A stretch of 64,000 nucleotides of DNA from an uncultured Myxococcales bacterium. Its GTDB lineage: Bacteria; Myxococcota; Kuafuiibacteriia; Kuafuiibacteriales; Kuafuiibacteriaceae. This document shows, one piece after another, positions 17,387 through 57,567 of the stretch. Under the pieces are notes generated by a model. The model saw only the letters and a list, made by a program, of their open reading frames with translations, did not search any database and had not been told where the DNA came from. The stretch lies in the NCBI GenBank assembly GCA_964519665.1, contig CAZFIV010000008.1, forward strand, positions 14,913 through 78,912, written 5' to 3'. The position numbers were made by a program, and so were the translations under genes. Every line of letters begins with the position of its first letter. Position 1 is the stretch's first letter.

Positions 17387-18031
17387 GTGAGCGCGCGGCG
17401 CGGTTTGCAGGTCAGCTTTCTGCTGGCCGGGATTTTCTCCATGGCGGCCGCGGAGGCACAGGTCGAGCCTTTGAAGGCGCGTCTTGTGTCGGATGGCACG
17501 CACTTGCGCGCCCAGTTCAGCATCACCAATGCTTTTACGGAGTCGTTTCGGAAACGGATGGCCGGCGGTCTGACGAATCGAGCCGTGCTGGCCATCGAAC
17601 TGCTCGACATGAGTTCAGATGTGTTCGTCGTTCGACAACGCAAGTGTGAGCTACGGGTAGACGTCTGGGACGATCGGGTATACGCGCGCGTCACCGATGA
17701 AGACCGGGAGCGGCGGCGGATTTACGCCCTCATCGATGATGGACTTCGGGCCTGCGGCCTGGTCGACGTCCCCCTGACGACGGTCGACAGGCTCACCGCC
17801 CCGACATACCGACTCCGCGTTCAGATCGCCCTCAACCCGATTTCACCGGAGCTTCGCGAACGAAGTCGGGAGTTCATGTCGAACCCCCAAGGCACCGCAT
17901 CCAGCCGTACCCCGGCATTCTTTGGCGCCGTCGCGCGTTTGTTCCGGTCGGAATCCGCTGCCGGTGGCACGGTGTTCGTGTTCCAATCCGGCCGATTGAA
18001 GAATCCGGTGAGCGAGGAGACGCCGCGGTGA
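17387..18031 (+). CDS. DUF4390-like periplasmic protein (often encoded immediately upstream of NtrY-type sensor kinases)
   Basis: The 214-aa product has a signal peptide (VSFLLAGIFSMAAAEA) and overlaps the downstream kinase start by 4 bp. The family assignment is from memory of the family pattern and has not been verified. Confidence 0.45.
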   Translation: MSARRGLQVSFLLAGIFSMAAAEAQVEPLKARLVSDGTHLRAQFSITNAFTESFRKRMAGGLTNRAVLAIELLDMSSDVFVVRQRKCELRVDVWDDRVYARVTDEDRERRRIYALIDDGLRACGLVDVPLTTVDRLTAPTYRLRVQIALNPISPELRERSREFMSNPQGTASSRTPAFFGAVARLFRSESAAGGTVFVFQSGRLKNPVSEETPR

Positions 18032-19566
18032 GGTGGCCGAGGTTTTCGAGGTTCGAGGGTCGAATCTTGGGCGCTATTTTCTTATGCGCCACCACCCCCT
18101 TCGTCATCTCGATCATGTTCATCCCCGGGATTATCCAGTCGCGCCTGGCTCTCGCCATGCACGATGACGTTCGCAGCCAGCTGGAGCGGTCCGCGGTCTT
18201 CTTCAAAGATTTTTTTGACGCCAAAAAGGCCGAGTACTCCGCTCGCGCCGAGACGATCTCCCGGGATCCGGTCCTCATTCGGGCGGCGCGGGCGGGTGAA
18301 GCCGACGACGTCTCGGCCCGGCTTCAGCAGTTCGTCGCCGACCACGAGGCCATTCGGGAGCTGCGAGTCTACGATCCGATCGGTGCACTGCTCGCTCGCG
18401 CCGAAGGACCACCGGAGCGCCAGGGCGATCGGTTCGTTCCCAAAACCATCGCGTTGCCGCTCGGTGTGGGCGACGCGCCCCGACTCGAAGCGGTGTTCAT
18501 CCTGTCGCGCGTCTATCTGAACGAACGCGACAAGGCGGAGTCGATCTCCCTATTGTACAGCGTGTCGCTGCGTGACGAGAGCAGTCGGGCGAATGGTTTC
18601 TATCGCGCCTACGTGGCCATCGCCCTCGTGGTGATGCTGGTGGCGGTGGCGATCGGCTACTTCCTCGCGCGAGGCGTGACCAAACGCATCGCGGAGCTCG
18701 CCCACGCCACCGAGCGGGTGGCCCAAGGCGAATACGGCTTCACGGTACCCGTGGGCGGCAATGATGAAATCACCGAGCTGACCGACGGCTTCAACCGAAT
18801 GATTCACGAGGTGGCGCAAGCCCGCGACCGGATCGTCTACCTCGAGAAGGTCTCGGGCTGGCAGGAGCTCGCCCGTCGACTCGCGCACGAAATCAAAAAC
18901 CCGCTGACCCCGATCCGGTTGGCCATCCAGGAGCTTCGACGCCGTGCGCCAGAGGGCGATGGTCGCTTCCGGCGACTGGTCGACGAGTCGACCGACATGG
19001 TCGAGGAAGAGATCGGGGCCCTGACCCGACTGGTCGACGAGTTCTCACGCTTCGCCAAGCTTCCCGAAGTCATGCCCGTCCATGTCGAAGTCCGCGAGTT
19101 CCTGGCCGACTTCCTCGGTGCGTACAACAACTTCGAGCCCGACGCGCGAGTGACCTTCGAGACCCCAAACGAACCGCTCGTCGCAGGGATCGACCGGGTC
19201 CTCATGCGACGCGTTCTGCACAATCTGGTCACCAACGCCATTCAGGCGGCGGGTCCGGGCCAAGCCGAGTTGAGCATCCGGTGCTTCGGCGCCGAAAAGG
19301 AGCGCATCGAGCTTCGGGTGGAAGACAACGGACCGGGTGTGCCCGACGACCAGGCGCACAAGGTTTTCGAACCTTATTTCACGACCAAGGCCACCGGCAC
19401 CGGCCTCGGCCTGGCGATCGTCAAGAAGATCGTTCTGCAGCATCGCGGCACCATTGTCCTCACCCGCTCCGAGGCGGGCGGAGCGGCCTTCGTCATCACC
19501 CTTCCCGCGGCGCCCGCGGGCGTCACCCCCGAGCGCGGCGATGCGCCGCCTTCCCGGCCGATCTAG
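18028..19566 (+). CDS. Sensor histidine kinase, NtrY/AtoS-like (2 TM, HAMP, HisKA, HATPase)
   Basis: Present are TM1, a periplasmic domain, TM2 (AIALVVMLVAVAIGYFLA), a HAMP domain, an H-box LAHEIKNPLTPIRLAIQEL, and N/G boxes (HNLVTNAIQA; GTGLGLAIVKKIVLQHRGTI). No response regulator is adjacent. Confidence 0.85.
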   Translation: MRWPRFSRFEGRILGAIFLCATTPFVISIMFIPGIIQSRLALAMHDDVRSQLERSAVFFKDFFDAKKAEYSARAETISRDPVLIRAARAGEADDVSARLQQFVADHEAIRELRVYDPIGALLARAEGPPERQGDRFVPKTIALPLGVGDAPRLEAVFILSRVYLNERDKAESISLLYSVSLRDESSRANGFYRAYVAIALVVMLVAVAIGYFLARGVTKRIAELAHATERVAQGEYGFTVPVGGNDEITELTDGFNRMIHEVAQARDRIVYLEKVSGWQELARRLAHEIKNPLTPIRLAIQELRRRAPEGDGRFRRLVDESTDMVEEEIGALTRLVDEFSRFAKLPEVMPVHVEVREFLADFLGAYNNFEPDARVTFETPNEPLVAGIDRVLMRRVLHNLVTNAIQAAGPGQAELSIRCFGAEKERIELRVEDNGPGVPDDQAHKVFEPYFTTKATGTGLGLAIVKKIVLQHRGTIVLTRSEAGGAAFVITLPAAPAGVTPERGDAPPSRPI

Positions 19567-19572
19567 ATCGCC

Positions 19573-20550
19573 TTGCCGCAACGGCGACGGCCGCATAGGG
19601 TCGGCGTGGTGCGCATCCCCACCGGTCTACTGCTATGCGTCATCGCGGCCTGTGCCGCGGGGGACCAACGGGGGCCCGAGCGTCCGAATGCAGGGACCGC
19701 TGATCGACGCCCTTCCGGTCCTCCGAGCGGTAGTCATGGCCCCGCCGGGCATCTCGAGCTCAAAGCCGCGGCGGCCGCCGCGGGGGCCGGCAATCTACCG
19801 TTGGCTTATCAACACTGTCTGGACGCCATCCGGAAGAATCCCCAGCTGGAACATGCGTACCGGCTAGCGGCCAGCATCTGCGCCATGCAGGGCAATGCGG
19901 AATGCGAACGGCAGAACTACGATGATGGTCTGACGGCGCTTCCCCGATCACCGGCCCTGCTGCGAGACCGCGCCTTGTTACATCTCGAGCAAGGCCAGTA
20001 CGCGGCCGCGGTCAACCGATATGAACGAGCCCTGGCCATCACCGGCGAGACCTCCCCCGAGGCGATGGCCGATCTCGCGTACGCCTACGTCTATGTCGAT
20101 CGACTCGACGAAGCCGATCGACTCGCCCGGCGGGCGGTCGAAATCGACGACGCGTGTTTCTCATGCCAAATGGCCCTCGGGCAGGTGTGCTTATCCAGCA
20201 ACGACTTCCCCGACGCGGTCACCGCGTTTAGCCAGGCCCGAAACCTGTCGCCTCGCGACCCGGACGCGCGCCGGTCCGAAGCCAAAGCACGCTTCTTGGC
20301 CGGTGAGGTGCGGACCGCACACCAGCTGTATGAGGCGCTGGTCGTCGAATATCCGGACGACGCGCGGCTGCGAGTTCAGGCCGCCCAGGTCGCAATGGGC
20401 GCCAAAGCATACGATGCCGCGGTGACCCACCTTGAGGTGGTCGCGGCCGCCAACCCCGATCAAGAACAACTGCTGCGCCTGTTGGCCAAGGCCCGAACGA
20501 AGGCAAAGAACGCGCGCAGGGCGACGTCCAGGTCGCGCACAAGCGAGTGA
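19573..20550 (+). CDS. TPR-repeat lipoprotein
   Basis: It has a signal peptide with a lipobox-like segment (LLLCVIAACAAG). Multiple 34-aa TPR-like repeats are present (AYRLAASICAMQGN..., ALLHLEQGQYAAAVNRYERAL...). The start is 7 bp after the kinase stop. Confidence 0.75.
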   Translation: MPQRRRPHRVGVVRIPTGLLLCVIAACAAGDQRGPERPNAGTADRRPSGPPSGSHGPAGHLELKAAAAAAGAGNLPLAYQHCLDAIRKNPQLEHAYRLAASICAMQGNAECERQNYDDGLTALPRSPALLRDRALLHLEQGQYAAAVNRYERALAITGETSPEAMADLAYAYVYVDRLDEADRLARRAVEIDDACFSCQMALGQVCLSSNDFPDAVTAFSQARNLSPRDPDARRSEAKARFLAGEVRTAHQLYEALVVEYPDDARLRVQAAQVAMGAKAYDAAVTHLEVVAAANPDQEQLLRLLAKARTKAKNARRATSRSRTSE

Positions 20551-27298: not shown

Positions 27299-29479
27299 CT
27301 ACTTCTTGAAAGCGCCGCCCACGGCGCCGTTGCCCCGGCTGCCTGGCGAACTCGACCGCTGTTGATTGGCCAGGAGCCGTAACCCCCGCGCCGCCTCAAC
27401 GTTGTTGGGTTCCCACTCCAGGCACCGCTGCCACCACTTTTGCGCCTCGACCGGATTGCTGCGAGCATACGAAATATTGCCGAGGTACTGGTACGCCACC
27501 GGCAGGTTCTCTTGCTCCTGCACGGCCTTTTTCAGCAGCTGTACGGCCTTCGAAAGGTTCACCGGAGAGTTCGGGTCGAGGCTGAAGGTGACCCAGCCCA
27601 GGGTGGCGAAGTAGATAGGGTCTGGGTTGAGACGTACGGCTTCGGCCAAGACTTGCTGCGCGTTCGGAAAGTCTTTGCGCCGGATCATGTTCATCGCCTG
27701 GTCAAAGAGCTGCTCGCCTCGCAGGATTTCATTCACATCGGTCGGCAAGCCTTTGGCTTTACGGTCGAGGTAAATGATGTACTCGGGTCGCTTGGTCGGA
27801 TCGGTGATCGTTTCGTAGGCTTCGGTGATGCGCGCGAAGATCTCATTGAGCTTTTGCTGCGCCGGGCCGAGGTCGACATCGGAAAACCCGTCTATGTGCC
27901 ACTTTTTGGCGAGCTCGAAGTAGGCAGCCTTAATGTCGGCCTCGGGCGTGCGGCGGGTCGCCCGAAAGATTTGAAAGAAGTCCTGCGACATAATTTCCGC
28001 GTGAAACCGGTTGACCCGCGCCTGGGCCCGCTGATCGGCACCGAGCGCTCCCCGAGCGGTGCCATCGTCAGGACCGTCGTCGAGCTCGAGCACCAGACTG
28101 CCGTTATCGCGGTCGAGGTTCTCGATTTCGGCCGCCGCCACGTTGACCGCGACCTCCATCGCGTTGTCGTCGTTGACTTCGGGCAGAACGGTCATGCCGC
28201 TGGTGACCAGCCCGAATAGTTGCGGCACGATCGTGGCCGCTTCGGAAGCACGAACCCGGGAGAGCTGCCGATACGTCTTGCTCCCGTCGATGTGACCAGC
28301 GACGGTCACCCCACCGAACACCCGCTGAAAGTACGGCAACAACCGCTCGAACTCGGTCGTCGGCACCAGCGGCACATCTTCGCGTCCGACGAAGAACTTC
28401 AGGATCTGAGGCGGATGCACGTGCTGCTTGATGCCTTCGAAGAGGACCTGGACAGGTTCGAAGCGACCTTCCGGCACTCGACCCACGAAGGCATCGGTTT
28501 CGCGCCAGCGATAATTCCCGAACGCCATCCCCAGAGCGAGCGGCAGGAGCTGCCCCGCCAGCAACTTGTAGGCCGTCGCAAGGTCGGCCTCGGTCACGAG
28601 CCGCAGCTCGAGCAGACTCTGCTGCAAGGTTCGGGCGCGGTCTTTCATGAACCGGAGGCACCGTTCGAAATCGGGCTCGGTAATGCGACCGCGGTGCAAG
28701 AGCAACGCGCCGACGTTTTCGCTCTCGGCGTTCGACTGCATGAAAGTCGGGTTGCCGTCGATGATGTAGATGCGGCGGTGGGTTCCCGCATCGTTGTTCA
28801 TGTCGAGCATGCCCGTTCCCCGGTCGTATCGAACCGTCGACAGCAGGAGGGCGACCGGCAACTCCTCGAGGGACCCGGCCTCCGCGAGTCTCGGAAAGGG
28901 CCGCCCATGAAAGACCCCATCGACGATCTCGCCCGCCTGGTCGGCCACCGAGGCGCCCGAAACGCCGGACAAGGCCGAGGTCACGGAGTACCCCCGCCCG
29001 GACACCGGGCGAGCCGCGTGGGCGGTCGCCAGTTCGGCCGGGTCGGCGTTGTGCAGCCGTAAAGAGGCGTGGCGCGCCGGCGGTTCCGACTCGAAGGCGC
29101 TCGTGGGTACGTCGAGCAACGCGTCCGCAATGATCTCCTCGAGTCTGCGCAGGTCGAGCGGCTTCGAGAGGAAATCCACGACCTGATACTTGTCGCGAGC
29201 TTCAACGGCGGTCTTCGGATTCTTGAATACCCCGCTCATCATCACGATCGCCGTGTGGGGCGCATCGCTCGAACGGATCGCCTCCGCCACCGCGAAGCCG
29301 TTTTTCTTCGGCAGCAGAAAATCGATGAGCGCGAGGTCGGGTCGAGACCGCTGGAAGGCCTCGATGCCATCCTCGCCATCCACCGCGACGGTCACCCGAT
29401 ATCCGCGGCCCTCCAGGTACTCGTGCAGCAAGTCCCGGATGGCCTCCTCGTCGTCTACGACCAGCACCCGATGCGGCAT
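27299..29479 (-). CDS. Response-regulator receiver fused to a DUF4388-like domain, a degenerate J-domain and C-terminal TPR repeats
   Basis: The receiver MPHRVLVVDDEEAIRDLL...DLALIDFLLPKKNG...LSKPLD has its Asp and Lys residues in place. A DUF4388-like block follows (LEELPVALLLSTVRYDRGTGMLDM...NVGALLLHRGRITEPDFERCL). The J-domain-like segment DFFQIFRATRRTPEADIKAAYFELAKKWHIDGF has HPD replaced by HID. TPR repeats follow at the C-terminus. I take the ATG at 29479 as the start. Confidence 0.8.
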   Translation of the reverse strand: MPHRVLVVDDEEAIRDLLHEYLEGRGYRVTVAVDGEDGIEAFQRSRPDLALIDFLLPKKNGFAVAEAIRSSDAPHTAIVMMSGVFKNPKTAVEARDKYQVVDFLSKPLDLRRLEEIIADALLDVPTSAFESEPPARHASLRLHNADPAELATAHAARPVSGRGYSVTSALSGVSGASVADQAGEIVDGVFHGRPFPRLAEAGSLEELPVALLLSTVRYDRGTGMLDMNNDAGTHRRIYIIDGNPTFMQSNAESENVGALLLHRGRITEPDFERCLRFMKDRARTLQQSLLELRLVTEADLATAYKLLAGQLLPLALGMAFGNYRWRETDAFVGRVPEGRFEPVQVLFEGIKQHVHPPQILKFFVGREDVPLVPTTEFERLLPYFQRVFGGVTVAGHIDGSKTYRQLSRVRASEAATIVPQLFGLVTSGMTVLPEVNDDNAMEVAVNVAAAEIENLDRDNGSLVLELDDGPDDGTARGALGADQRAQARVNRFHAEIMSQDFFQIFRATRRTPEADIKAAYFELAKKWHIDGFSDVDLGPAQQKLNEIFARITEAYETITDPTKRPEYIIYLDRKAKGLPTDVNEILRGEQLFDQAMNMIRRKDFPNAQQVLAEAVRLNPDPIYFATLGWVTFSLDPNSPVNLSKAVQLLKKAVQEQENLPVAYQYLGNISYARSNPVEAQKWWQRCLEWEPNNVEAARGLRLLANQQRSSSPGSRGNGAVGGAFKK

Positions 29480-29545
29480 CGCGTTTTGTCGGCCCCAGGA
29501 GGGCCCACCCTTCTCCCGTGATGGCCCTACCACGCGCCCCGACGG

Positions 29546-31951
29546 TCAGTCGACCGAGACGCTCCACGGGAACCAGGCGAGCGGCTCGGGGGCGCCGGAT
29601 CGAGTCGTCTCGAACGACAGCAGCGGGCCGAAGAGCTGTTCGACACCATCGGGCCATATCGGCGCCTCGTCGGGCTGCGCCGAGATGACACCGGCGTCTT
29701 GGGCCAACCGGATGGCGACGGGTAACGGTTCGATACTCTCCGGGAAATTGCTGATCCGGAACTCCGCATGGTCAGCCAAACCCGCTTCCTGGCGCGCCCG
29801 ACGGATCGCGTCGACCAGGCCGCCGATCTCGTCGACCAGCCCCCGTTCCTGGGCATCGAGCCCCGTCCACACGCGCCCCCTCGCGATCTTCTCGACTTGA
29901 GCTCGCTCGAGCTTTCGCCCCTCGGCGACCGTGGTCAGGAACCGCCGATAGGCGGCATCGACCCCCAGCCGCGCGATGCGACGCTCGGCCGCAGTCGAGT
30001 CCAGGAACGGGCTCGGGCTACCGATGCCGGGCCCGAGCCGCTCCGAGTTGATCCCGAACCGACGGACGAGTCCCTCGACCGAAAAGCGGAGCGAGAACAC
30101 CCCGATCGATCCGGTCAGCGTGGTCGGCTCGGCATAGATGACCTGCGCCCCGGAAGCCGCGTAGTAACCTCCGCTCGCCGCCACGTCCCCAAAGCTGGCG
30201 ATCACCGGCTTCTCTTCGGCGACCTTCCGTACGCCGCGGGCGATCAGGTCTGACGCGAACGCACCACCCCCAGGGCTGTCGACCCGCAGCACCACCGCCT
30301 TGATGTCGGGGCGGCGCCGAGCCTCTTCCAGCGCGCGAAGGATCGAAGTGGCGCCAACGTTCCGTCCAAATCCGAAAGGTAGATTGCGAGACGAGCCGGA
30401 CACGATCGTGGCGTCGATGTGGATGACCGCGATCGTGGGAGGGGGAGCCCACCGGGGACGTTCCGGTTGAAGCGCCCGTTCGCCCTGCGCGAAGGTTATG
30501 CGCCCTCGGTGCCGCTCGCGAACCCACTTCTCGACTTCATCCGGGTAGAGAACAGCATCGACCATATCGAGGGCGACCGCCTGCGTCGCAGTGACCGCCC
30601 CCCGCCGCAGGATCTTCCTGACCTCGGCATCGGGCAGCCCCCGACCTTCCGCCATCGCGAGCTCGAGCGTCGCCTGAATCCGGTCGAGCACCCGTCCCAG
30701 GCTCTCTCGCTGGGCCGAACTGATGCCGGACCGGGTAAAGGTCTCGGGGCTGGTCTTGTACTCTTCGCGACGGTGGACTTCGGCCTCGACACCGTAGCGC
30801 TCGAGCGCATCGCCGAAGAACAGCAGCTTGGCCTGCACTCCGTTGACGGCGAGGACCATCGCTGGCGGGATGATGATCGTCGAACAAGCGGTCGCGACGA
30901 AATACGACTTGTCGTCGGCCCCGGTAAGCTGGCAGTCGACACGACGGCCGGCTTGACGCAGCCTCTCAAGGCCGGCTCGGACCTCTTGTAGAGTTGCCCA
31001 GCCGACCTTCAGGTTTCCGATCCGCGCGAGCACGCCGACGACTTCGTCGTCTTGCCGCAACCGTTCGAGATACACGGGCAGCCCGCCGTAGGGGGCCGGC
31101 CGAAAGCCTCCGCGAAGCAGCGAAAAGGTCGGCTGGGGCCGGAGCCGGCCGGAGAGGTCGAGGACGGCGACGCGCTGGCTCCTTAGCACCGACGGCCGAC
31201 GATAGCCGCGAAGGGCCAGCTCCGCCGTGAACCCGATCTGGTCGTCGTCGACGACGTCGACCTGACCGGAGACCGACCCATATTCTCGCTGAAGGGTCAG
31301 TTGGACGAGGAACCGGCCGTCGAGGTCGCCCAACGCCCCGACCAAGAGCCCGGGGATCGGCTCGACCTCGCCGCGAAACGCTAGGTCGAGGCTGTCGCCG
31401 TCGAGCACCTCGTTCTCTTCGTAGCGCCACCGAACCCCCAAAGTGAGCCGAGGCGAGGGCCGAATGGCGAGCCCGGTGTCGTATTGCCGGTCGGAAACCG
31501 ATTGGGAAAGGTCGCGACTCGTGAAGCCGAGCGAAAGCCACCGGGACGGCCGAAGTTGGGCGCCGAGCGACCATACACCTCGGTCCTCGCCCTCGATCGG
31601 CCAGTCGATGGTGTACGAAAAGCCGAGGCTCAACGGCCCTCGGCCGGTCCCCAAACCCAACGAGAGCGCCCGGCGGAAGTCTCCGTTTTCGGCGTCCGCC
31701 TCGACGCCGAGACCGACCGTAGCGGCTCCGAACACGGGGAGAGCCGCGTAGCCGCCAAATCCGTAATCCGTATTCGAGAGGTCGGGCACAGAACGGTCGC
31801 GGCCCGCGAACAGCCGCAGCTCGGGGCCGTCGAGACGCCCCAGTCCCGCGGGGTTGAATCGCAGGGCGTATGCATCGTCGACCTCGGCCGGGAGTCGGAC
31901 CGGTACCGGGGCCGTCATCAGGAGGGCGGCCAACCCAAGCGCGGCGCTCAT
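29546..31951 (-). CDS. Signal peptide peptidase SppA (S49 family, two S49 domains) with a roughly 270-aa beta-strand-rich N-terminal extension
   Basis: The active-site region is DSPGGGAFASDLIARGVRKVAEEKPVIASFGDVAASGGYYAASGAQVIYAEPTTLTGSIGVF. An earlier degenerate S49 repeat is present. The internal Met at 31951 gives a signal peptide (MSAALGLAALLMTAPVPV). The N-terminal part has amphipathic beta-strand periodicity (LSLGFSYTIDW, WLSLGFTS, RLTLGVRWRY). Confidence 0.8.
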   Translation of the reverse strand: MSAALGLAALLMTAPVPVRLPAEVDDAYALRFNPAGLGRLDGPELRLFAGRDRSVPDLSNTDYGFGGYAALPVFGAATVGLGVEADAENGDFRRALSLGLGTGRGPLSLGFSYTIDWPIEGEDRGVWSLGAQLRPSRWLSLGFTSRDLSQSVSDRQYDTGLAIRPSPRLTLGVRWRYEENEVLDGDSLDLAFRGEVEPIPGLLVGALGDLDGRFLVQLTLQREYGSVSGQVDVVDDDQIGFTAELALRGYRRPSVLRSQRVAVLDLSGRLRPQPTFSLLRGGFRPAPYGGLPVYLERLRQDDEVVGVLARIGNLKVGWATLQEVRAGLERLRQAGRRVDCQLTGADDKSYFVATACSTIIIPPAMVLAVNGVQAKLLFFGDALERYGVEAEVHRREEYKTSPETFTRSGISSAQRESLGRVLDRIQATLELAMAEGRGLPDAEVRKILRRGAVTATQAVALDMVDAVLYPDEVEKWVRERHRGRITFAQGERALQPERPRWAPPPTIAVIHIDATIVSGSSRNLPFGFGRNVGATSILRALEEARRRPDIKAVVLRVDSPGGGAFASDLIARGVRKVAEEKPVIASFGDVAASGGYYAASGAQVIYAEPTTLTGSIGVFSLRFSVEGLVRRFGINSERLGPGIGSPSPFLDSTAAERRIARLGVDAAYRRFLTTVAEGRKLERAQVEKIARGRVWTGLDAQERGLVDEIGGLVDAIRRARQEAGLADHAEFRISNFPESIEPLPVAIRLAQDAGVISAQPDEAPIWPDGVEQLFGPLLSFETTRSGAPEPLAWFPWSVSVD

Positions 31952-32201
31952 CTGGCCCGGAAGGTACGGGGGTGTGCTCTTTGGAGCAACTACAGACCCT
32001 GGACGCCGATACAAAGAAGGCGTGAGACCCCCGCCCCATCCGGCCACCGCGGCCACTGCGAGTGCCAACCCGCAGCGAGCGGAGCGAGCGAAGACGGCCG
32101 GTGAGGTCGACCTTCAGGCTTCGCAGTGCACCCGTCGAGGGCCCGAGGCGTCGGAGCGCGGGCGGCGATTCGCGTACGTCGAAGCCCAGCGGGCCGAAGA
32201 A

Positions 32202-34007: not shown

Positions 34008-35555
34008 ATGGTTGCGCGGCCCGATCGACCCATCGACGTCAGTGATCTCGACCTATCCGAGCTTTCCAAGGGCCCCTCGATTCGTCAGGATGCGCAAGCT
34101 CCGCTGCACCGCCTGCTGGGTCAGCCAGTGGGTCTCGAAGGCCTCTCCCGACTGTTTCAGCCGTCTTTCCCTGGCGTCCGGACCTTCGCCATCGGAGTCC
34201 GCGCAACGCCGGATCAAGCCGTCGAGCTCACGCTGGTCGGCATCGCCCGCGACGGCGTACCGGTATGGACGGGAACCCGCACGTTCAGTCGAGGGCCCAG
34301 CGGCGGCCTCGAAATGGACATCGGGTTCGATGAGGTCGATCCCCGCTTTCGCTCCCGCAACATCATCGTCGATGCGGTGACCCGGCAAGTTCAGCTATTG
34401 CGTCGACTCGACGGCAGTCCGCCGTGTCGGCTGACGATCGATGCCGACGGAACGGGCCGCTACGTGTGCGCGCTGCACGGCTTCGTCTTCGCCGATGAGA
34501 CCGAAGAAGGACCGTCGCCGCGCTCACGATGGGCAATGGCGCCGGCCGGCGACCGAGCGCGGATCATCGAAACGGGGCAGACGATCATCAAGGCTCACGC
34601 CGACCGACTGGGACTCGGCAAGCTCGCGTTGGAGGACGCGATCGAGCAGCTGCGAGCGGCTCGATCGGGCTGGGACCTGGCTCGGCTCAGCTTTTCGGAT
34701 TCGTCTTTTCCGCCCGACGCCGACTCCGATGAGGCCCTCGGCATCGGTCCCCTCGGTCGCGCGCTGCTGCTCGACGACTCGACGCCGGGCTGGCGCGGCG
34801 CGCTGTACCCCGACGAGCGGTTCTGGGAGCTGAACCAACGCGGCGACGCTTATCGTCGTCATAAAACCGCGCGTTCTCGAGCCAGGCTTCGACTCGAGGT
34901 CGAAATGGCGCGACAGGGGCTTTCGAGCCCCCATCGGGCCGAGCGCATTCGCAGTCTGGAGACGCTCGGTCGCGTCGGGGACCCATCGATTGTTCCAGAG
35001 CTGAACGCGTTCGCATCCGGCAAAGAACGGCGGATGGCCGCGCTGGCTCGGCGGATGCTGGACCTGATCCATGGCAACGGCCTTGCCGAACGGTTGTTGG
35101 AGTACGCAAACGATACGCGACATCCTACGCGGCAGAGGGCGTTGGCCTATCGCGTCTTGGCTGAACATTTCCCGAAGCATCTCGCCGAAAAAACCCCCAT
35201 GCTTCGTGTTGATCCGGACGCGCGCATCCAGCGGGCCGCCGTTCCTTTGGTCGCGCGGCAGCCGCATGACCCGGGCCCAGCCCTGGCCGCGATGCTGGCC
35301 GCAAACCCCCTCGACAGCGCCGACCGACAACGGCCGGGGCTCGCCGCACTGCGGCTCGACATCATCGAGTGGCTCACGATTTTGGCCGACCCACGGACGT
35401 TGCTTCCGCTCAGTCTCGCATTTCAAAATCAGCCACCGCCCCCGCCCGCAGAGGCGCTTGCTCTGTCTCGGGCCATCGTCACGTTCAACGATCCTCGCGC
35501 CAAGATGGTATTGCGCGCCGGCAGCTTTCCCCTGACCCGCCCCGACGTGCCTTGA
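34008..35555 (+). CDS. Hypothetical protein with C-terminal HEAT/PBS-lyase-like repeats, directly upstream of the MglA paralogue
   Basis: Repeated helical hairpins are present (ERIRSLETLGRVGDPSIVPELNAF; RALAYRVLAEHFP; DARIQRAAVPLVARQP). The roughly 200-aa N-terminal portion is mixed alpha/beta and unassigned. Confidence 0.6.
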   Translation: MVARPDRPIDVSDLDLSELSKGPSIRQDAQAPLHRLLGQPVGLEGLSRLFQPSFPGVRTFAIGVRATPDQAVELTLVGIARDGVPVWTGTRTFSRGPSGGLEMDIGFDEVDPRFRSRNIIVDAVTRQVQLLRRLDGSPPCRLTIDADGTGRYVCALHGFVFADETEEGPSPRSRWAMAPAGDRARIIETGQTIIKAHADRLGLGKLALEDAIEQLRAARSGWDLARLSFSDSSFPPDADSDEALGIGPLGRALLLDDSTPGWRGALYPDERFWELNQRGDAYRRHKTARSRARLRLEVEMARQGLSSPHRAERIRSLETLGRVGDPSIVPELNAFASGKERRMAALARRMLDLIHGNGLAERLLEYANDTRHPTRQRALAYRVLAEHFPKHLAEKTPMLRVDPDARIQRAAVPLVARQPHDPGPALAAMLAANPLDSADRQRPGLAALRLDIIEWLTILADPRTLLPLSLAFQNQPPPPPAEALALSRAIVTFNDPRAKMVLRAGSFPLTRPDVP

Positions 35556-35601
35556 CCCGCCGCTTGGCCGGTTGGAAACTCTCAGCTCCCAGCGGGTTTA
35601 C

Positions 35602-36621
35602 ATGCCGACTTACAACTACAAGTCCCGCGAGCTCATCGCGAAAATCGTCTACTACGGCCCCGGTCGGTGCGGTAAGACCACGAACTTGCAGCAGATCCAC
35701 GCGCGGATGCGTCCGGAAACGCGAAGCGACCTGCTCAGCGTGGCGACCGAAACCGATCGCACGATCTACTTCGACCTGCTGCCTCTCAATCTGGGGACCA
35801 TCAGCGGGATGAAGTTCATGGTCCGGCTCTTTACGGTTCCGGGTCAGGTCTACTACAGCGAGACGCGCAAGCTAGTCCTAAAGGGCGCTGACGGCATCGT
35901 CTTCGTCGCTGATTCCCAAGACCACATGGTAGATGAGAACCGCCAGTCGCTTCATGACTTGAAGACGAACCTGGCGGCCAACGGGCTCGATTACAACACG
36001 ATCCCGCTGGTGCTGCAGTGGAACAAGCGGGACTTGCCGCATCTCATCCCCGAAGCGGAGCTCGACTCGACCTTGAATGACCGGGGCGTCAAGTCGATCA
36101 ACGCCGTCGCGTCGCAGGGCACCGGCGTACTCGAAACCCTCCGCCATATTACTCTGGCCGTGTTCAATCACATCAAGGCTGGGGGCCAGGTCGGTCCGGC
36201 GCCCCGCGCTCGGCCGGGCCAAGCGATGCCTCCTCCCCCGCCGCCGCCCGAAGGGACCGCGAACGCCAGCGGGCCGACAGCACCGCCCAGTGAAGCCCCC
36301 GGAGGCCGGCAGGCGGTCGGCACCGTCGCTCCCGGTTCGTGGTCATCGTCCATCCCGCGCGCGAACCCCGGCCCCGACGCGAGTGGGGCCGCCACACCAG
36401 CCGTATCGGCAAGGCAACCTGCACCACCGCCGCCTCCGCCGCGCGAGGGACCTTCGGGCATGGCGATCAGCGCCGATATGGTGGTCGAAGAGTTCAAGCA
36501 TCTCGCGGTGGTTCAAAGCCAGATGAGCGAGCGCCTGAGCTCACTCGAAAGCGAGCTGGCTCGACTTGGGCGCGAAAATCAAGAGATCCGCGAGATATTG
36601 GCACGACACATCCGCGCCTGA
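35602..36621 (+). CDS. MglA-family Ras-like GTPase with a roughly 150-aa Pro-rich plus coiled-coil C-terminal extension
   Basis: The product is about 55% identical by eye to M. xanthus MglA over about 195 aa. Shared features are the P-loop YYGPGRCGKTT, the switch region TETDRTIYFDLLPL (Arg-finger-equivalent R), TVPGQ (catalytic Gln), NKRD and a terminal KAGG. Then follow PPPPPPPEG...PPPPPPREG and a heptad coiled coil (EEFKHLAVVQSQMSERLSSLESELARLGRENQEIREIL). An ATG at 35602 is in frame with the longer track ORF. Confidence 0.85.
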   Translation: MPTYNYKSRELIAKIVYYGPGRCGKTTNLQQIHARMRPETRSDLLSVATETDRTIYFDLLPLNLGTISGMKFMVRLFTVPGQVYYSETRKLVLKGADGIVFVADSQDHMVDENRQSLHDLKTNLAANGLDYNTIPLVLQWNKRDLPHLIPEAELDSTLNDRGVKSINAVASQGTGVLETLRHITLAVFNHIKAGGQVGPAPRARPGQAMPPPPPPPEGTANASGPTAPPSEAPGGRQAVGTVAPGSWSSSIPRANPGPDASGAATPAVSARQPAPPPPPPREGPSGMAISADMVVEEFKHLAVVQSQMSERLSSLESELARLGRENQEIREILARHIRA

Positions 36622-37264
36622 TCTCCGCGGAACAGCCTATCCGTTCGCCTTCCGTCAAGTGTCAGTTGCCCAACAAACAGTATTCCTAGTTTCGGGACCC
36701 ACGACTCAACACTGCGACCGACTATCCGATCAATCTGGGTTTGGCATTGGTCGTGGTTCACGATCGACGGTCGTCCGAGGTCCGCGGACAACTTTCAGAT
36801 GAGCGCTGGTATCGCTTGGCGGACCGCAGGGCTGTGCTAAGATAATTATAGTGGTTGGCCACGACGACCAAACGCTGGCCGTTTCCAGATACTCTGAGGG
36901 CGAGCGGCACAACGAGGCCGAGGTCATCGACCTCGTTCGCCTGCCTTTGGGTACCCGGCCGACGCCCATATGCGAGGTCGAATACGACGAAGTCCCTCGG
37001 CTGCGGCAGATGGACTGCGACTTCTACCAGCGGTGCCTAGGGTTTGCGGCGCAAGTTCGCTGGCGTAGCTTTCATTGTCGGCAGTGCCCTCGACATCCGG
37101 ATCGCGTAGCCCGAGATCCGGCTGCCGCCGACGCTGAGCCGCGCCCATTGCCCCACAACGTTATCCCTTTGCGAGAGCTTTGATCGCCCTTTCGGTTCAA
37201 GTGAGGTCACCGACGCCATGGGCTGAGTGACAGCTCCGGTGATGCCTGCTAGCGTGGAAGGTCG

Positions 37265-38425
37265 ATGGAGCTCAATGACGTCTTGTCCGTCGCCGTCAAG
37301 GGGGGCGCTTCGGATATCCATCTGAAAGCCGGATTGCCCCCGATGTTTCGGGTCAACGGCAAGCTCGTGCCCCTCAAAGACCGTCAACGTCTATCTCCCG
37401 AGGAGATGTCTCGGATGGCGTTGGCCATCATGAACAACTACCAGCGAGAGCGATTCAAGCAATACAACGAGATGGACTTGGCGTACGGCGTCCCGGGGCT
37501 CGGGCGCTTTCGCGTCAACGTGTTTCAGCAGCGCGGCACCGTCGGCATCGTTCTTCGGGTCATTCCATTCAAGCTCCGTTCGCTCGACGACCTCAAGCTA
37601 CCGCCGGTCCTCAAAGAGATCGCCATGGAAGAGCGAGGCCTGGTCCTGGTCACCGGCACGACGGGGTCCGGTAAGAGCACCACCCTGGCGGCGATGATCG
37701 ACCATATCAACACGTCGAAGACGGTCCACGTGATGACGGTTGAAGACCCGATCGAGTTCCTCATTCGCGATAAGCGCTCGGTGATCAATCAGCGTGAGGT
37801 CGGGGTCGACACCCTGTCGTTCAGCCAAGCCCTCAAATCCGCGCTGCGCCAGGATCCCGACGTGATCCTCGTGGGTGAGATGCGCGACCTAGAGACGATC
37901 GAAACCGCGCTGCTGGCCTCGGAGACCGGTCACCTGGTCATGTCCACCCTGCACACCCTTGACGCCACGGAGACCGTATCCCGGATCGTGGCTGTATTCC
38001 CTCCTCACCAGCAGCGGCAGATTCGCCTCCAGCTGGGAGCGACGGTCAAAGCGATCCTGAGCCAGCGGTTGGTCCCGACCCGCGACGGGGCGGGCCGGGT
38101 CGCAGCACTCGAAATACTTCGAAGCACGCCCCGAATCCGAGAGATGATCGAGGACAAAGACCGAACCAAAGAGCTACCCGAAGCGGTCGCCGAAGGCGCT
38201 TCCACCTACGGCATGCAGACCTTCGACCAAGCCCTTATGGGTCTCTTAAAAGCCAAGATCATCAGCTACGACGAAGCGCTCAAGCAGGCGACCAACCCCA
38301 GTAACTTCGCGCTTCGCGTCCAGGGCGTCGAATCATCGTCCGACTCCAAGTGGAACGAGTTCGAGCGAAACGAAGGGACCGGCGTTCATCGGTTGCCGCC
38401 GACGCGTCGTCCGTCGCGAACCTGA
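37265..38425 (+). CDS. pilT: Type IV pilus retraction ATPase PilT
   Basis: The start MELNDVLSVAVKGGASDIHLKAGLPPMFRVNGKL and the Walker A motif VLVTGTTGSGKSTTLAAMIDHIN fit, as do the PilT-specific C-terminal motifs. A GGAAGG RBS lies 4 nt upstream. Confidence 0.9.
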   Translation: MELNDVLSVAVKGGASDIHLKAGLPPMFRVNGKLVPLKDRQRLSPEEMSRMALAIMNNYQRERFKQYNEMDLAYGVPGLGRFRVNVFQQRGTVGIVLRVIPFKLRSLDDLKLPPVLKEIAMEERGLVLVTGTTGSGKSTTLAAMIDHINTSKTVHVMTVEDPIEFLIRDKRSVINQREVGVDTLSFSQALKSALRQDPDVILVGEMRDLETIETALLASETGHLVMSTLHTLDATETVSRIVAVFPPHQQRQIRLQLGATVKAILSQRLVPTRDGAGRVAALEILRSTPRIREMIEDKDRTKELPEAVAEGASTYGMQTFDQALMGLLKAKIISYDEALKQATNPSNFALRVQGVESSSDSKWNEFERNEGTGVHRLPPTRRPSRT

Positions 38426-45968: not shown

Positions 45969-47078
45969 CTATAGCAGCAGAAAAGCGACGAACGCCGCGG
46001 CGGCGAGAAAGAAGACCGCTCCTAGGATCAGAATCATGAGCTCCCAAGCGGCGCCCTTTCGGGTGACCTTCTCGATCTCACTGTTCATCGCCCGAAGGAC
46101 TTCGGGGTCGACGCCGTCGTCGATGACGGGAGGCGGCCCGGTGTTGGGAGGCGACAGTTCCAGGCCGTCGTCGACGGGGGCCGGAGGTTCATCGACGTAT
46201 AGGTCGGACGCGGCGTCCGGTACGTCGGAGACCTCAGGCATCGCATGGTCGAACTCGCGACTATCCCCGGCCGCCGTATCGTCGGTGGCGCGGGGACCAA
46301 GGCCCGTTTCTTCCGGTCCGCCCATCTGATCAAGAAGCCGAGAGGGAGGATCGATGAAGATGAGTTTCACCCCACCGACCTGCAGTTCGTCGCCGTCCTT
46401 GAGCATTGGAGCGCCGTCGATCTGCTTACCGTTGAGCAGGACACCGTTCTTACTTGCCAGGTCTTGGGCAGTAAAACCGTGCCAGTTGCGCTTGATCAGG
46501 CAGTGCCGGCGCGAGGTGTTCTGGTCATTGAGGGTGATGTCGCAGTCAGGGCTCCGACCGATCGTGATCTCCGCGGCGTCCTCCGACAGCTCGAAGCGGC
46601 GCCCCTCATCGGTGCCGTTCATGATGCGCAGCGCGGGCGGATCCGCCTGATTGGAGCCCAGCGACGCTAGCACTTCCTGGACCATCCGGCGGGCGAGCGC
46701 CTCGGTCTTCTCGCCGGGCTTGCGGTCGAGCATCGTGCCGACCGTGGTCTTGAAGGTGATGTGAAACGACATGATTTTGATCATGTCGCCGTCGCGAAGG
46801 AGGCGCTTTTCGCCAGGCGCAACCTTGCGGCCATTGTGTTCAGTGCCGTGGGTAGAGCCGAGGTCTTCGAGGAAGTAGTCCCCCATCTCGAAAAAGATTC
46901 GCGCATGACGCCGAGAAACCGTCGTTAGGGGCACTTGAATGTCGTTGGCGGGGTCGCGGCCGAGCGAGATGACCGACTGCTGAAAGTCGTAGGAAAACGC
47001 GCGGGGCTCCCGTTGGGGGAGCGTCAGTTCGACTTTCAGATGAACTGGCGGGGTTTGCCTAGCAGCCGACTCGCCCAT
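45969..47078 (-). CDS. Dual-FHA-domain protein with a C-terminal TM anchor
   Basis: FHA1 is ISLGRDPANDIQVPLTTVSRRHARIFF...LGSTHGTEHNGRKV. FHA2 is ITIGRSPDCDITLNDQNTSRRHCLI...DLASKNGVLLNGKQI. The protein ends in a TM helix (LMILILGAVFFLAAAAFVAFLLL). Confidence 0.85.
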   Translation of the reverse strand: MGESAARQTPPVHLKVELTLPQREPRAFSYDFQQSVISLGRDPANDIQVPLTTVSRRHARIFFEMGDYFLEDLGSTHGTEHNGRKVAPGEKRLLRDGDMIKIMSFHITFKTTVGTMLDRKPGEKTEALARRMVQEVLASLGSNQADPPALRIMNGTDEGRRFELSEDAAEITIGRSPDCDITLNDQNTSRRHCLIKRNWHGFTAQDLASKNGVLLNGKQIDGAPMLKDGDELQVGGVKLIFIDPPSRLLDQMGGPEETGLGPRATDDTAAGDSREFDHAMPEVSDVPDAASDLYVDEPPAPVDDGLELSPPNTGPPPVIDDGVDPEVLRAMNSEIEKVTRKGAAWELMILILGAVFFLAAAAFVAFLLL

Positions 47079-55381: not shown

Positions 55382-55636
55382 TCAGAAGACGCCGCCTAAG
55401 CTGATGAGCGGCGACGGTGCGCCGACCACCCCGGGATCGTCCGGTGCTTGGGTCTTCGTACGGAGCAACGGGATCGTCAAGCCCAACGCGGTCCCCAGGA
55501 ACGCACCCACGACGACGTCCGTCAGGAAGTGCTTGCCGGCGACGACCCGGGTCGTCCCAACGCCGATCGCCCCGAAGTCAGCCCAGCTGCACCGACGACC
55601 AATGCCCCATCTCGCACGGATGAAAGACCGGCTCAC
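55382..55636 (-). CDS. Small ORF with a PAP2 phosphatase motif-3-like segment (possible gene remnant)
   Basis: The segment RVVAGKHFLTDVVVGAFLG resembles the SRxxxxxHxxxD C3 motif of PAP2 enzymes, but motifs 1 and 2 are absent. A GTG start overlaps the upstream stop (GTGA). Confidence 0.3.
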   Translation of the reverse strand: MSRSFIRARWGIGRRCSWADFGAIGVGTTRVVAGKHFLTDVVVGAFLGTALGLTIPLLRTKTQAPDDPGVVGAPSPLISLGGVF

Positions 55637-57567
55637 GATGCCTCCAAAATCTTGGTGATCCGAAGCGCCATCGGATGGCTGAGGTCGGGCGTCTGGTCCA
55701 TGATCATCGCGGCCGCGCGAAACTCACCGTCCTCGGCCAGCGCCAGCGCCATGCAGAGCTTCAGTCGCCAATCGTAGGCGTTCAACTCGACCTGCTCCTG
55801 CAGCATCCCGAGGAGAGCGCGCGCGTCAGCCGCTCGCTGCCCATCCGGAGCCCGGATGACGTCGAGCACGCCGAAGTACGCGCTGAGGTCGCTGCGGGAA
55901 GGATCGAGTCGCTCGGCCCAGCTCAGCAGGAGCGTCGCTTCGCCGGTTCGACCCGCCCCCATCGCGCGCACGGCGCGGTCGACCTTCGGCTCCGCTTCGA
56001 CCGCCCGCCGCTCCCGATCGATGGGAGAGAGCTTCTCTCCACGCTCGACCAGATGTGCGTACCGACGCGCCGATTCTCCGTCTTTGAGGACTTCGTAGGC
56101 CTCGTGCAGCAGGTCGAGAACCGGGCCTGCGCCCTGTCGATCGATATCCTCTTCGAACCGTCGGACCAAGAACCGGTACGCTCGGTCGAGCTGAGCGGCG
56201 TCGGTATCCGCCGACACGCGGAGAATCTGGAAGTAGTTCTGCCCGAAGTACGGCGTCAGTCGGTCGCGTACCGCTACGTATTCTCGGTCGTGAGCGTTGC
56301 CTCCGACCGCGGCCTCGGTTCGAATCTGCGAGGTTACCCGAACGACCGGCGGACGGGTATCGATCGCGCCACTGCTACGCCGGTGCACGACCAATCCTTC
56401 CCCACCGCCAGCAACCCCTCCGGGCCCTCCGGACGGCGAACTCGGCGAGGCGGTGCCCGGCGGAGCCCGTTCGCTCGCCGACCACGCGGGCTCGGCGACC
56501 CCGGGAGATGCTGCTTCATCGACGTCGGCGGCCACGTTCGGCGACGATGGGAGCGCTCCGCCGGCGGACGCCAGCCCCGCGGCGGGACCGCTGGGCGCCG
56601 CGGTGGGCCGGACCGCCGAAGCGCCCGCCGGTGCGTCGAGGGGATCGCTCGGGGACGACGTCGCCTCGATCCGACGGCCTTGATGCCCGGATTTGGGGCC
56701 GCTCATCGAAGCCGAAGCCGAAGAAGCGGACGAAGTCGTGAGCCCGCGAGGCCGGCCCGCCTCGCGCAGGTCGACCATGTCGGTCAGATGAAGGGCGGTC
56801 AGCACCGCCGCCGCGCAGTCGGGCTCCAGCCCGGCTCGCTCGAGATCCGCGAGCCGCGCCGGAAAGTGCAGGGACTCCAACGCGGTCTCGACCGAAGGCC
56901 CCCATTCGAAGGGATCGACGTTCCGTGGATAGGTCGCCGAGAGAGTGAATCTGCTCTCGATGTGCTTGGCCAGGAAACGCTGAACCACCGACCGGTCGCG
57001 CGCGTGGCGCAAGCCTTCGTACACTATGGGCAAGGGCTGCAAAATGGTGAGGATGCCATCCTCCAGCGCTTGAATGCCTTCGACGAACCGAAACTCGATT
57101 GGGCCGGCGTCGAACAGCTTCACCAGCTGCCTACGGGCCCATCGAACTTGCGCCTGGTGCAAATCAACTTGCGATAAGAGCTCGGCGCGCCGGATCACGT
57201 CGGCCGCCGAATGGCCCGACGATTCGCCTTCCCGCAGGAGCTCGAGACCCGTATCCTCCCGGATGCGGTCCTCGCTGATGAGCAGCTGAATCAGTGAAAG
57301 CGGACCGTCGGGCAGATCGACCACGATCGGAACGCCGTCCCGGAAGTGGACGCGGTTTCTTGGCTCCGGATGAAGGAAAACATCGAGCCGCCCCGTGAGA
57401 TTGCCGCGCAGAATCCCCAGCAGCAGCTCGGCGAGCGGATAGGTTGCAAACGTCGCATCCAGCGTGCCGCCCGGACGGATACTCTCAATCTTGGGCATGG
57501 TACGTCGTCGACCGGCCGCCGGCTCTCGACGGCCCATCTCCTTTGCTCGCTGCGCAGCTCCGCCCAA
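55633..57567 (-). CDS. DUF4388-like domain protein with a degenerate J-domain and C-terminal TPR repeats (paralogue of 27299-29479, lacking the receiver)
   Basis: The N-terminal block is GTLDATFATYPLAELLLGILRGNLTGRLDV. The J-like helix pair is NYFQILRVSADTDAAQLDRAYRFLVRRFEED, with no HPD. A Ser/Pro/Ala-rich linker and TPR-like repeats follow at the C-terminus. The start may be the Met at 57498. Confidence 0.75.
   Translation of the reverse strand: MGGAAQRAKEMGRREPAAGRRRTMPKIESIRPGGTLDATFATYPLAELLLGILRGNLTGRLDVFLHPEPRNRVHFRDGVPIVVDLPDGPLSLIQLLISEDRIREDTGLELLREGESSGHSAADVIRRAELLSQVDLHQAQVRWARRQLVKLFDAGPIEFRFVEGIQALEDGILTILQPLPIVYEGLRHARDRSVVQRFLAKHIESRFTLSATYPRNVDPFEWGPSVETALESLHFPARLADLERAGLEPDCAAAVLTALHLTDMVDLREAGRPRGLTTSSASSASASMSGPKSGHQGRRIEATSSPSDPLDAPAGASAVRPTAAPSGPAAGLASAGGALPSSPNVAADVDEAASPGVAEPAWSASERAPPGTASPSSPSGGPGGVAGGGEGLVVHRRSSGAIDTRPPVVRVTSQIRTEAAVGGNAHDREYVAVRDRLTPYFGQNYFQILRVSADTDAAQLDRAYRFLVRRFEEDIDRQGAGPVLDLLHEAYEVLKDGESARRYAHLVERGEKLSPIDRERRAVEAEPKVDRAVRAMGAGRTGEATLLLSWAERLDPSRSDLSAYFGVLDVIRAPDGQRAADARALLGMLQEQVELNAYDWRLKLCMALALAEDGEFRAAAMIMDQTPDLSHPMALRITKILEAS

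Follow-up and report, generated by a model that had tools for sequence, protein, structure and literature searches.

A response regulator with a PATAN domain and an atypical J domain, and its receiver-less pseudo-J relative, in uncultured Myxococcota

Domain structure of the two proteins

A 64,000-nucleotide stretch from the genome of an uncultured Myxococcales bacterium (contig CAZFIV010000008.1, positions 14,913 to 78,912; termed the window here, with a G+C content of ~64.5%) contains two minus-strand genes, A and B, whose products share a PATAN (DUF4388) domain, a J-domain-like segment and a C-terminal region of tetratricopeptide repeats (TPRs) or TPR-like helices. Gene A (27299..29479) encodes a 726-residue orphan response regulator in which an N-terminal receiver is followed by the PATAN domain, a J domain with an H-x-D loop in place of the HPD tripeptide and the TPR region, as assigned from the open reading frame (ORF), Pfam matches and an AlphaFold model. 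Gene B (55633..57567) encodes PATAN, linker, pseudo-J and TPR-like segments. The ORF of A runs from 27299 to 29533 with its start at the ATG at 29479; the Met-Pro-His-Arg start is kept among orthologues, and a database protein (P0001) is 100% identical to the product. The longest ORF of B has 644 residues, and since 40 orthologues begin at MPKIESIRPGG the ATG at 57498 is the probable true start, giving 621 residues (ORF numbering is used for B below). A test of codon-position G+C chose only the minus-strand A and B ORFs as best in their regions. Long ORFs also run antisense to both genes (for example 55675–57177 and 27440–28219 on the plus strand) and reach up to 500 residues; they are probably artefacts of the high G+C content rather than genes. 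Both AlphaFold models are confident apart from the linker (predicted local distance difference test score, pLDDT, of 88.3 for A and 81.6 for B).

The receiver domain of A (29120..29479, minus strand; residues 1–120) is fully canonical, as the initial annotation had proposed. Residues 5–117 match Pfam Response_reg (PF00072) with 80.5 bits against a cut-off of 30.2, and the key residues Asp9, Asp10, Asp53, Ser82, Phe103 and Lys106 are invariant wherever the domain is present among 90 relatives. The putative phospho-acceptor Asp53 is encoded at 29321–29323. A Foldseek comparison of the full model with the PDB returned solely CheY-like receivers [root-mean-square deviation (r.m.s.d.) of 1.2–2 Å]. 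Pfam detects no receiver domain in B. In A the receiver is joined to the rest of the protein by a disordered linker (28931..29119, minus strand; residues 121–183) recognized from its low confidence and poor conservation; residues 130–177 have a pLDDT below 50 and are weakly conserved.

The PATAN region of A (28097..28930, minus strand; residues 184–461) comprises the core, an α-helical insertion and a conserved helical extension. DUF4388, which had been suggested for both proteins, is recovered by Pfam in each, with marginal scores against a cut-off of 25: PF14332 matches residues 201–350 of A (28430–28879) with 27.1 bits and residues 39–191 of B with 26.6 bits. In A this is the block of the family with the densest invariant residues, and the model is confident there. 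The insertion interrupts an α/β core, so that β-strands flank four helices in the predicted structures of both A (residues 256–315) and B (residues 82–143). The only hint from PDB sequences for the PATAN region of A is a weak match of the insertion to the MshE N-domain (E = 0.4). The corresponding core and helical extension of B (56764..57465, minus strand; residues 35–268) are delimited from PF14332, the alignment of family profiles with hhalign and the model.

A Pro/Ala/Ser-rich disordered linker (56308..56751, minus strand; pLDDT below 50) separates the PATAN and pseudo-J segments of B. Within this otherwise unalignable stretch, a GLVVHRR motif (G-L-V-[IV]-H-R-R; 56377–56397, minus strand) is conserved across the B family, with its Gly-Leu pair at least 90% conserved. 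Its hydrophobic core with basic flanks resembles a DnaK-binding peptide or a docking motif. In one B orthologue (P0126), a long array of tandem repeats, with units such as ADTASPSRSAARGA, extends the linker over alignment columns ~530–700; the length of the linker is therefore free to vary in the family.

The central segments of both proteins are related to J domains, as had been suspected. In A, the J domain (27755..27991, minus strand; residues 497–575) is matched by Pfam DnaJ (PF00226) at residues 500–567 with 34.6 bits (cut-off 27.8), and the segment aligns with the J domains of human DNAJA3 (E = 2e-10) and Escherichia coli DnaJ (5nro_B; E = 6e-6). Helices of the J fold are predicted at high confidence for residues 501–504, 513–527, 540–559 and 563–575. 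His528-Ile529-Asp530 (27890–27898) superimposes on HPD in the alignment and is followed by a six-residue insertion. The pseudo-J domain of B (56038..56238, minus strand; residues 444–510) gives a sub-threshold Pfam match from the single sequence (residues 444–503; 22.3 bits against 27.8), and is identified by the family profile and by structure. The profile of the B-family segment matches solved J domains, that of Thermus DnaJ2 with E = 4.5e-10 and some forty others, and Foldseek places the model on J domains with an r.m.s.d. of 1.6–2.4 Å over 63–67 residues and a TM-score of up to 0.79. Its loop, RRFEEDID (56140–56163), has no HPD, so that the earlier reading of a replaced tripeptide in A (HID) and an absent one in B holds in the alignments.

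Neither protein is an ordinary class A/B DnaJ or CbpA, judged by the G/F region, zinc finger, C-terminal substrate-binding domains and full-length model match expected of these. In Pfam, the J domain is the only part of DnaJ or CbpA matched in A, which places A outside class A/B DnaJ and CbpA, and the best 25 NCBIfam matches listed for A are all response-regulator models with no DnaJ or CbpA model among them. NCBIfam models match B in the J segment alone (DnaJ_bact with 24.5 bits against 377 and the CbpA model with 17.4 against 403). C-terminal TPRs, anticipated for both proteins, are found by Pfam in A: the eight-helix region (27350..27736, minus strand; residues 582–710), also seen in the model, contains a TPR_2 match at residues 662–693 (34.2 bits; cut-off 27) and is matched by TPR_19 as well. 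For B, the TPR-like helical repeat (55639..56028, minus strand; residues 514–643) is detected by structure and profile methods alone, and Pfam gives no TPR match.

Homology, distribution and phylogeny

A pairwise BLASTP comparison of A with B gives a weak match that is limited to the J region (E = 6e-6). When the family profiles are compared with hhalign (a 61-sequence A alignment and a 40-sequence B alignment), the match has a probability of 98.4% and an E value of 5.7e-15 and covers 481 collinear columns, beginning where PATAN begins and reaching the end of the TPR region. A and B are homologous over their entire shared length, and not only in the TPR region.

Family A has ~90 full-length relatives (clusters) with 41–72% identity, from sources labelled as Myxococcota or 'Deltaproteobacteria' metagenomes and metagenome-assembled genomes (MAGs). 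A scan of one genome per species gave 17 full-length copies, all in uncultured Myxococcota MAGs, and no cultured organism is among its matches. Family B has ~44 relatives (clusters) from the same type of source, and several share contigs with members of family A (P0008/P0123 on a 727-kb contig, P0006/P0129 on a 249-kb contig and P0019/P0161 on a 3.28-Mb contig). Neither family is known outside uncultured Myxococcota, and each is a single-lineage orthologous family. Family A has 60 invariant columns; conservation is strongest in the β4–α4 segment of the receiver (MMSGVFKNPKT), the PATAN core (with the motifs TGMLD, FMQSN..ENVG, TAYKLLAG and GRVPEG) and the start of the TPR region. The pattern of conservation suggests that both families have been kept under selection along their full length. 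A decaying pseudogene is ruled out, as A and B are intact and conserved throughout their length in 40–90 clusters. A role in anti-phage defence is also ruled out: the PADLOC matches are generic receiver matches only.

The most divergent A-family locus in our survey, L023, encodes a 477-residue protein (9899–11332, plus strand) that is receiver-less and has R-P-D at the J loop. The gene lies at the same genomic position as A, directly downstream of sppA and near mglA-like and pilT-like genes. The receiver can therefore be lost or gained inside family A.

To place the two families in a wider context, the B-family profile hidden Markov model was searched exhaustively against 1.84 billion representative proteins, giving 7170 matches with E ≤ 1e-3, of which 831 reach E ≤ 1e-10. 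Outside family B, the top 150 matches include dozens of proteins of 520–680 residues aligned in a single stretch from profile position ~12 to ~530. Pfam finds DnaJ in all 58 superfamily members sampled, DUF4388 and TPR_2 each in 55 and a receiver in four; some members match DUF4388 down to E = 6e-20. The J-loop tripeptide of 89 distant members is HPD in 76, HTD in three, HED in one and something else in nine. PATAN-J-TPR is a widespread architecture of class-C J-domain proteins (JDPs) with the canonical HPD as the norm. The clusters bear only automatic metagenome labels ('curved DNA-binding protein CbpA' or 'CbpA', 'DnaJ-domain-containing protein' and 'CheY-like'), and a protein search with the superfamily alignment is dominated by generic TPR proteins. 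No characterized protein with this architecture was found in the searches made, in agreement with the initial annotation. Six long members of the superfamily (P0228, P0244, P0280, P0281, P0291 and P0301; 1095–1186 residues) have scrambled J loops (F-D-L-G and similar) and extensions of 150–250 residues at the N-terminus and ~400 residues at the C-terminus. They appear to form a further independent pseudo-J lineage.

The superfamily profile matches A with E = 4e-82, in two segments flanking its linker, and B with E = 6e-66, in a single segment covering profile positions 8–535, while A and B match each other's family profile at only ~1e-10. In an unrooted neighbour-joining tree (a distance method, 200 bootstraps, indicative only), the A and B families are each monophyletic in 200 of 200 replicates and are sisters in one, and A clusters with receiver-bearing superfamily members that contain HPD. 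Because the two families are sisters in 1/200 replicates and HPD is the norm around them, we read A and B as separate derived branches; the tree gives an indication that HPD was lost independently in each. The grouping of A with receiver-bearing, HPD-containing members implies that the receiver-PATAN-J-TPR form once had an intact HPD. The description of B as a receiver-less paralogue thus stands as regards its homology and missing receiver, but B is not simply A minus the receiver: the tree and the profile scores rule out a recent duplicate of A that has lost this domain. Nor is the J fold a recent co-option, as had first been supposed. With HPD in 76/89 and DnaJ in 58/58 superfamily members, the ancestral state would therefore have been an ordinary Hsp70 co-chaperone domain, from which the loops of A and B are derived losses.

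The presence of A and B on the same contigs in several genomes, and of plentiful canonical HPD relatives in the same types of sample, raises the question of whether a J domain and a pseudo-J domain are paired here as in mitochondrial Pam18–Pam16, which provides a precedent (PMC13254874). We consider this improbable, as the window holds no canonical paralogue (the superfamily profile matches A and B alone there) and the two genes lie 26 kb apart in unrelated neighbourhoods.

The J-domain loop

The contribution of each HPD residue is described by a simulation study of DnaJ and DnaK, in which His33 contacts Leu391 of the linker and Asp35 contacts Arg167, while Pro34 breaks helix II so that the side chains of His33 and Asp35 face the same way (PMC13012618). 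According to a review, stimulation is abolished by substitutions in HPD, no tolerated variant other than HPE is known, and proteins whose replacements are non-conservative make up a 'type IV' or 'pseudo-JDP' group that is unexplained (PMC13254874).

HPD does not occur in any of the 90 sequences of family A, whereas His is present in 81 and Asp in 84. The middle position is occupied by 13 residue types (among them Thr in 19, Ala in 15 and Val in 13), and the three sequences with Pro at this position each lack either His or Asp. Further signature positions of J domains are kept in helices II and III of A (Tyr520, Leu523, Ala524, Phe548 and Glu-Ala-Tyr 553–555). The loop of family B is acidic, gapped and unconserved: it reads E-E-D or has a gap, and neither His nor Asp is conserved. 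As in B, the entire tripeptide is scrambled in several further pseudo-J lineages of the superfamily. Judged as type IV or pseudo-JDPs, B therefore belongs to the group fully and A at the proline position only. Both resemble Pam16/Tim16 (DKE), DNAJB13 (HPL) and the Plasmodium type IV proteins in having a J fold with HPD replaced, but those proteins are unrelated to A and B outside the J domain, and the H-x-D pattern is not among the pseudo-JDP examples of the review (PMC13254874).

The two side chains selectively retained in A are those that contact Hsp70, which suggests that the loop is still in use, as this is the pattern expected in that case. Because exactly both contacting residues are kept, the simplest reading is that A uses the loop on an Hsp70. 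An internal control is provided by the paralogous B family, in which His and Asp have drifted, and we infer that B has no such use for its loop.

The main alternative is that the J fold of A and B is merely a structural helical module beside the TPRs, independent of Hsp70, with His and Asp of A serving a new partner or packing within the molecule. The consistent lack of HPD in family A, the repeated loss of HPD across the superfamily and the lack of chaperone genes in the neighbourhoods of A and B that were checked would all fit such a scaffold. What it leaves unexplained is why A retains precisely the Hsp70-contacting residues when true pseudo-J lineages, B included, lose them, and A also keeps the signature residues of helices II and III and has functional J domains as its closest PDB matches for this segment. 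We therefore regard an Hsp70-independent module as somewhat unlikely for the pair. The signalling scaffold envisaged in the initial annotation is plausible for B and less so for A, given the retention of His and Asp.

Genomic context and proposed role

Directly upstream of A and on the same strand lies a gene for an SppA-like S49 peptidase (29546..32068, minus strand; PF01343, TIGR00705). The 66-nucleotide gap between the two contains no terminator-like site, and the genes are probably co-transcribed. A tblastn survey of synteny over 22 related loci found sppA directly upstream of A in 17, L023 included; L008, L010 and L014 retain A but not this adjacency. The peptidase has 840 residues, and its first ~330, with a signal-peptide-like start and a strand-rich region, are unmatched in Pfam and NCBIfam; its relatives have 790–870 residues, so the N-terminal extension is conserved. 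The recurrent adjacency and the short gap could be taken to indicate that A serves not motility but a function in quality control of the envelope or of secretion, where it might, for instance, regulate or chaperone the precursor or the substrates of the signal-peptide peptidase at the cytoplasmic face of the membrane. Such a function is very unlikely in our view: A is soluble and cytoplasmic and has no membrane segment, whereas SppA is exported or sits in the membrane, A can be kept where the adjacency is broken, and nothing known of PATAN, J or TPR domains suggests SppA.

Further upstream, a divergent block (34008..38425, plus strand) encodes a HEAT-like protein of 515 residues with no family assignment (34008–35555), an MglA-family GTPase of 349 residues (35572–36621) with the signatures GPGRCGKTT, TVPGQ and NKRD and a proline-rich, coiled-coil C-terminal extension, and a PilT/PilU-family ATPase paralogue (37265–38425; TIGR01420, 470 bits), after which comes a Ser/Thr kinase gene. 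The mglA-like and pilT-like genes, 6–9 kb away from A in the window, occur within 10 kb of A in ~15 of the 22 related loci. This is suggestive of a functional context for A, and may reflect conserved gene order only. B is surrounded by housekeeping genes (an M24 peptidase, a diaminopentanoate-dehydrogenase-like protein, a HAD hydrolase, an ABC1 kinase and a class II ribonucleotide reductase), and the gene order around B is as conserved as that around A.

No kinase gene is adjacent to A. Candidate phosphodonors elsewhere in the window are a HAMP histidine kinase (18028–19566, plus strand) and two receiver-containing kinase-type proteins (9855–11750 and 11793–13862, plus strand), the second of which has HisKA, HATPase and REC domains. 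The HAMP kinase gene lies in a group spanning 17387–20550, between a gene at 17387–18031 (with no Pfam match in the window and a DUF4390-like counterpart in L001) and one for a 325-residue TPR protein; the group belongs to a conserved block downstream of A. Elsewhere, a protein with two FHA/YscD-type domains (45969–47078, minus strand) adjoins a 407-residue multi-TPR protein (47097–48320, minus strand). The window gave neither Rfam matches nor tRNA genes when scanned for them.

Proteins with the same types of domain have been studied in two settings. PATAN proteins are numerous in Myxococcus xanthus and often encoded near mglA/mglB, and social motility requires the PATAN protein SgnC. The M. 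xanthus J-domain protein SgmC (MXAN_1106) is a predicted partner of the DnaK homologue SglK in motility dependent on exopolysaccharide (EPS) and pili. Proximity labelling of M. xanthus MglA recovered SgnC, the DnaJ/TPR protein MXAN_2049 and the PilT paralogue PilT5 (PMC10630675), and this organism has 15 Hsp70 homologues (PMC11019930). SgnC, MXAN_2049 and SgmC thus bring the domain types of A and B, compared here by description only, into MglA proximity and pilus/EPS-dependent motility. In cyanobacteria, the PATAN domain of Synechocystis PatA-type regulators suffices for membrane localization, for binding PilB1 and the N-terminus of PilC and for the reversal of phototaxis (bioRxiv 10.1101/2021.06.11.447907), and the TPR-containing DnaJ3, working with DnaK1 and GrpE, attaches to the pilus motor and links it to the secretion of polysaccharide (PMC12288463, PMC9239167). 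No paper naming both the PATAN domain and DnaJ was found in the literature searched.

None of these systems coincides with A and B. Like the PatA-type regulators (PatA, PixG, PixE and LsiR), A combines a CheY-like receiver with a PATAN domain that has a helical insertion, and its output would be a protein–protein interaction. The likeness rests on a marginal PF14332 match, and the receiver of A is N-terminal where that of PatA is C-terminal; A also adds J and TPR regions, and so departs from the PatA-type architecture of an N-terminal PATAN domain, a C-terminal receiver and nothing else. J and TPR regions in one polypeptide are shared with TPR-containing class-C JDPs (cyanobacterial DnaJ3/Sll1384, which works with DnaK1, and eukaryotic DNAJC7 and DNAJC3/p58IPK), but these have HPD and neither PATAN nor receiver domains, DnaJ3 being set apart by its description. 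The J domain of DNAJC3 (2y4t) lies at the C-terminus (match at 381–447 of a 450-residue chain), whereas in A and B the TPR region follows it. The uncharacterized metagenomic PATAN-J-TPR proteins are collinear with A and B, and their receiver-bearing members (4/58) are the nearest relatives of A; unlike A and B, they mostly keep HPD.

The fusion unites both kinds of player in one polypeptide, and on this basis we propose that the target is a pilus or polarity component and the partner an Hsp70. The reading we favour makes A an atypical J adaptor, controlled by phosphorylation and targeted by PATAN, that probably retains the ability to engage an Hsp70, with B as a pseudo-J relative. Phosphorylation of Asp53 by some kinase would shift the α4–β5 face of the receiver, which contains the highly conserved SGVFKNPKT, relative to the remaining protein, and would thereby gate an output that is a protein–protein interaction rather than DNA binding. 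The PATAN domain would act as the targeting and output domain and, by analogy with the cyanobacterial PatA-type regulators, might dock on an ATPase of the type IV pilus or type II secretion type or on the polarity module of MglA. Hsp70 recruitment would be the ancestral task of the J-TPR module. Through the retained His528 and Asp530, A could engage an Hsp70, probably a specialized myxobacterial paralogue, with a loop that no longer needs the proline, and would thus serve as a signal-controlled adaptor that delivers chaperone activity to the client bound by PATAN. B, having lost the loop, would bind or compete at most and could not stimulate, which would make it a non-stimulating scaffold or an antagonist. 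For the whole of this model, comprising gating by Asp53, docking of PATAN on a pilus-type ATPase or MglA, recruitment of Hsp70 by A and a non-stimulating B, we estimate a probability of roughly 40%.

Several observations weigh against the model. Substitutions of Pro34 are considered inactivating in canonical J domains (PMC13254874), and the H-x-D loop of A may simply be non-functional. The Pfam scores of the PATAN domains (27.1 and 26.6) barely exceed the threshold of 25, and the N-terminal position of the receiver, unlike that in the PatA-type regulators, makes the analogy of signal flow a loose one. The nearest co-oriented neighbour of A encodes an exported S49 peptidase with no obvious tie to the proposed role. 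The synteny with the mglA-like and pilT-like genes belongs to a ~30-kb region that is collinear in this lineage; L005 and L018 have lost both genes, and L008, L010 and L013 lack the upstream block. In the neighbourhoods checked, those of A, B and two canonical HPD relatives, no adjacent gene encodes an Hsp70, GrpE or a pilus protein.

A bolder, and unlikely, extension treats the fusion as a Rosetta stone. The PATAN regulators and the specialized DnaK/DnaJ-TPR systems, which have been seen separately at the cyanobacterial type IV pilus motor and near MglA in Myxococcus, would be two parts of a single mechanism: a signal from a two-component system would direct an Hsp70 to remodel a pilus or polarity ATPase complex. 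H-x-D would be an evolved functional alternative to HPD, a motif supposed to be indispensable, and would be matched to a co-evolved Hsp70 paralogue.

A and B belong to known kinds, namely the response regulators, the PATAN proteins and the type IV JDPs. Should the J loops simply be dead, what is left is two more pseudo-J scaffolds of an ordinary sort; its importance is greater if the H-x-D loop is functional or if the link from PATAN through Hsp70 to the pilus or polarity machinery is true. In the catalogue of response regulators, PATAN with J-TPR is an additional type of output. More broadly, the large unstudied PATAN-J-TPR family (hundreds of clusters) physically joins a domain that acts on pilus motors to an Hsp70 co-chaperone domain, which offers a concrete hypothesis for how specialized DnaK systems may be aimed at motility and polarity machines. 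Family A is in addition a natural experiment on HPD: over deep divergence the proline has been dispensable while His and Asp were kept, and all three residues are gone from the paralogous B of the same genomes. A comparison of A with B could separate the parts of HPD needed for binding Hsp70 from those needed for its stimulation.

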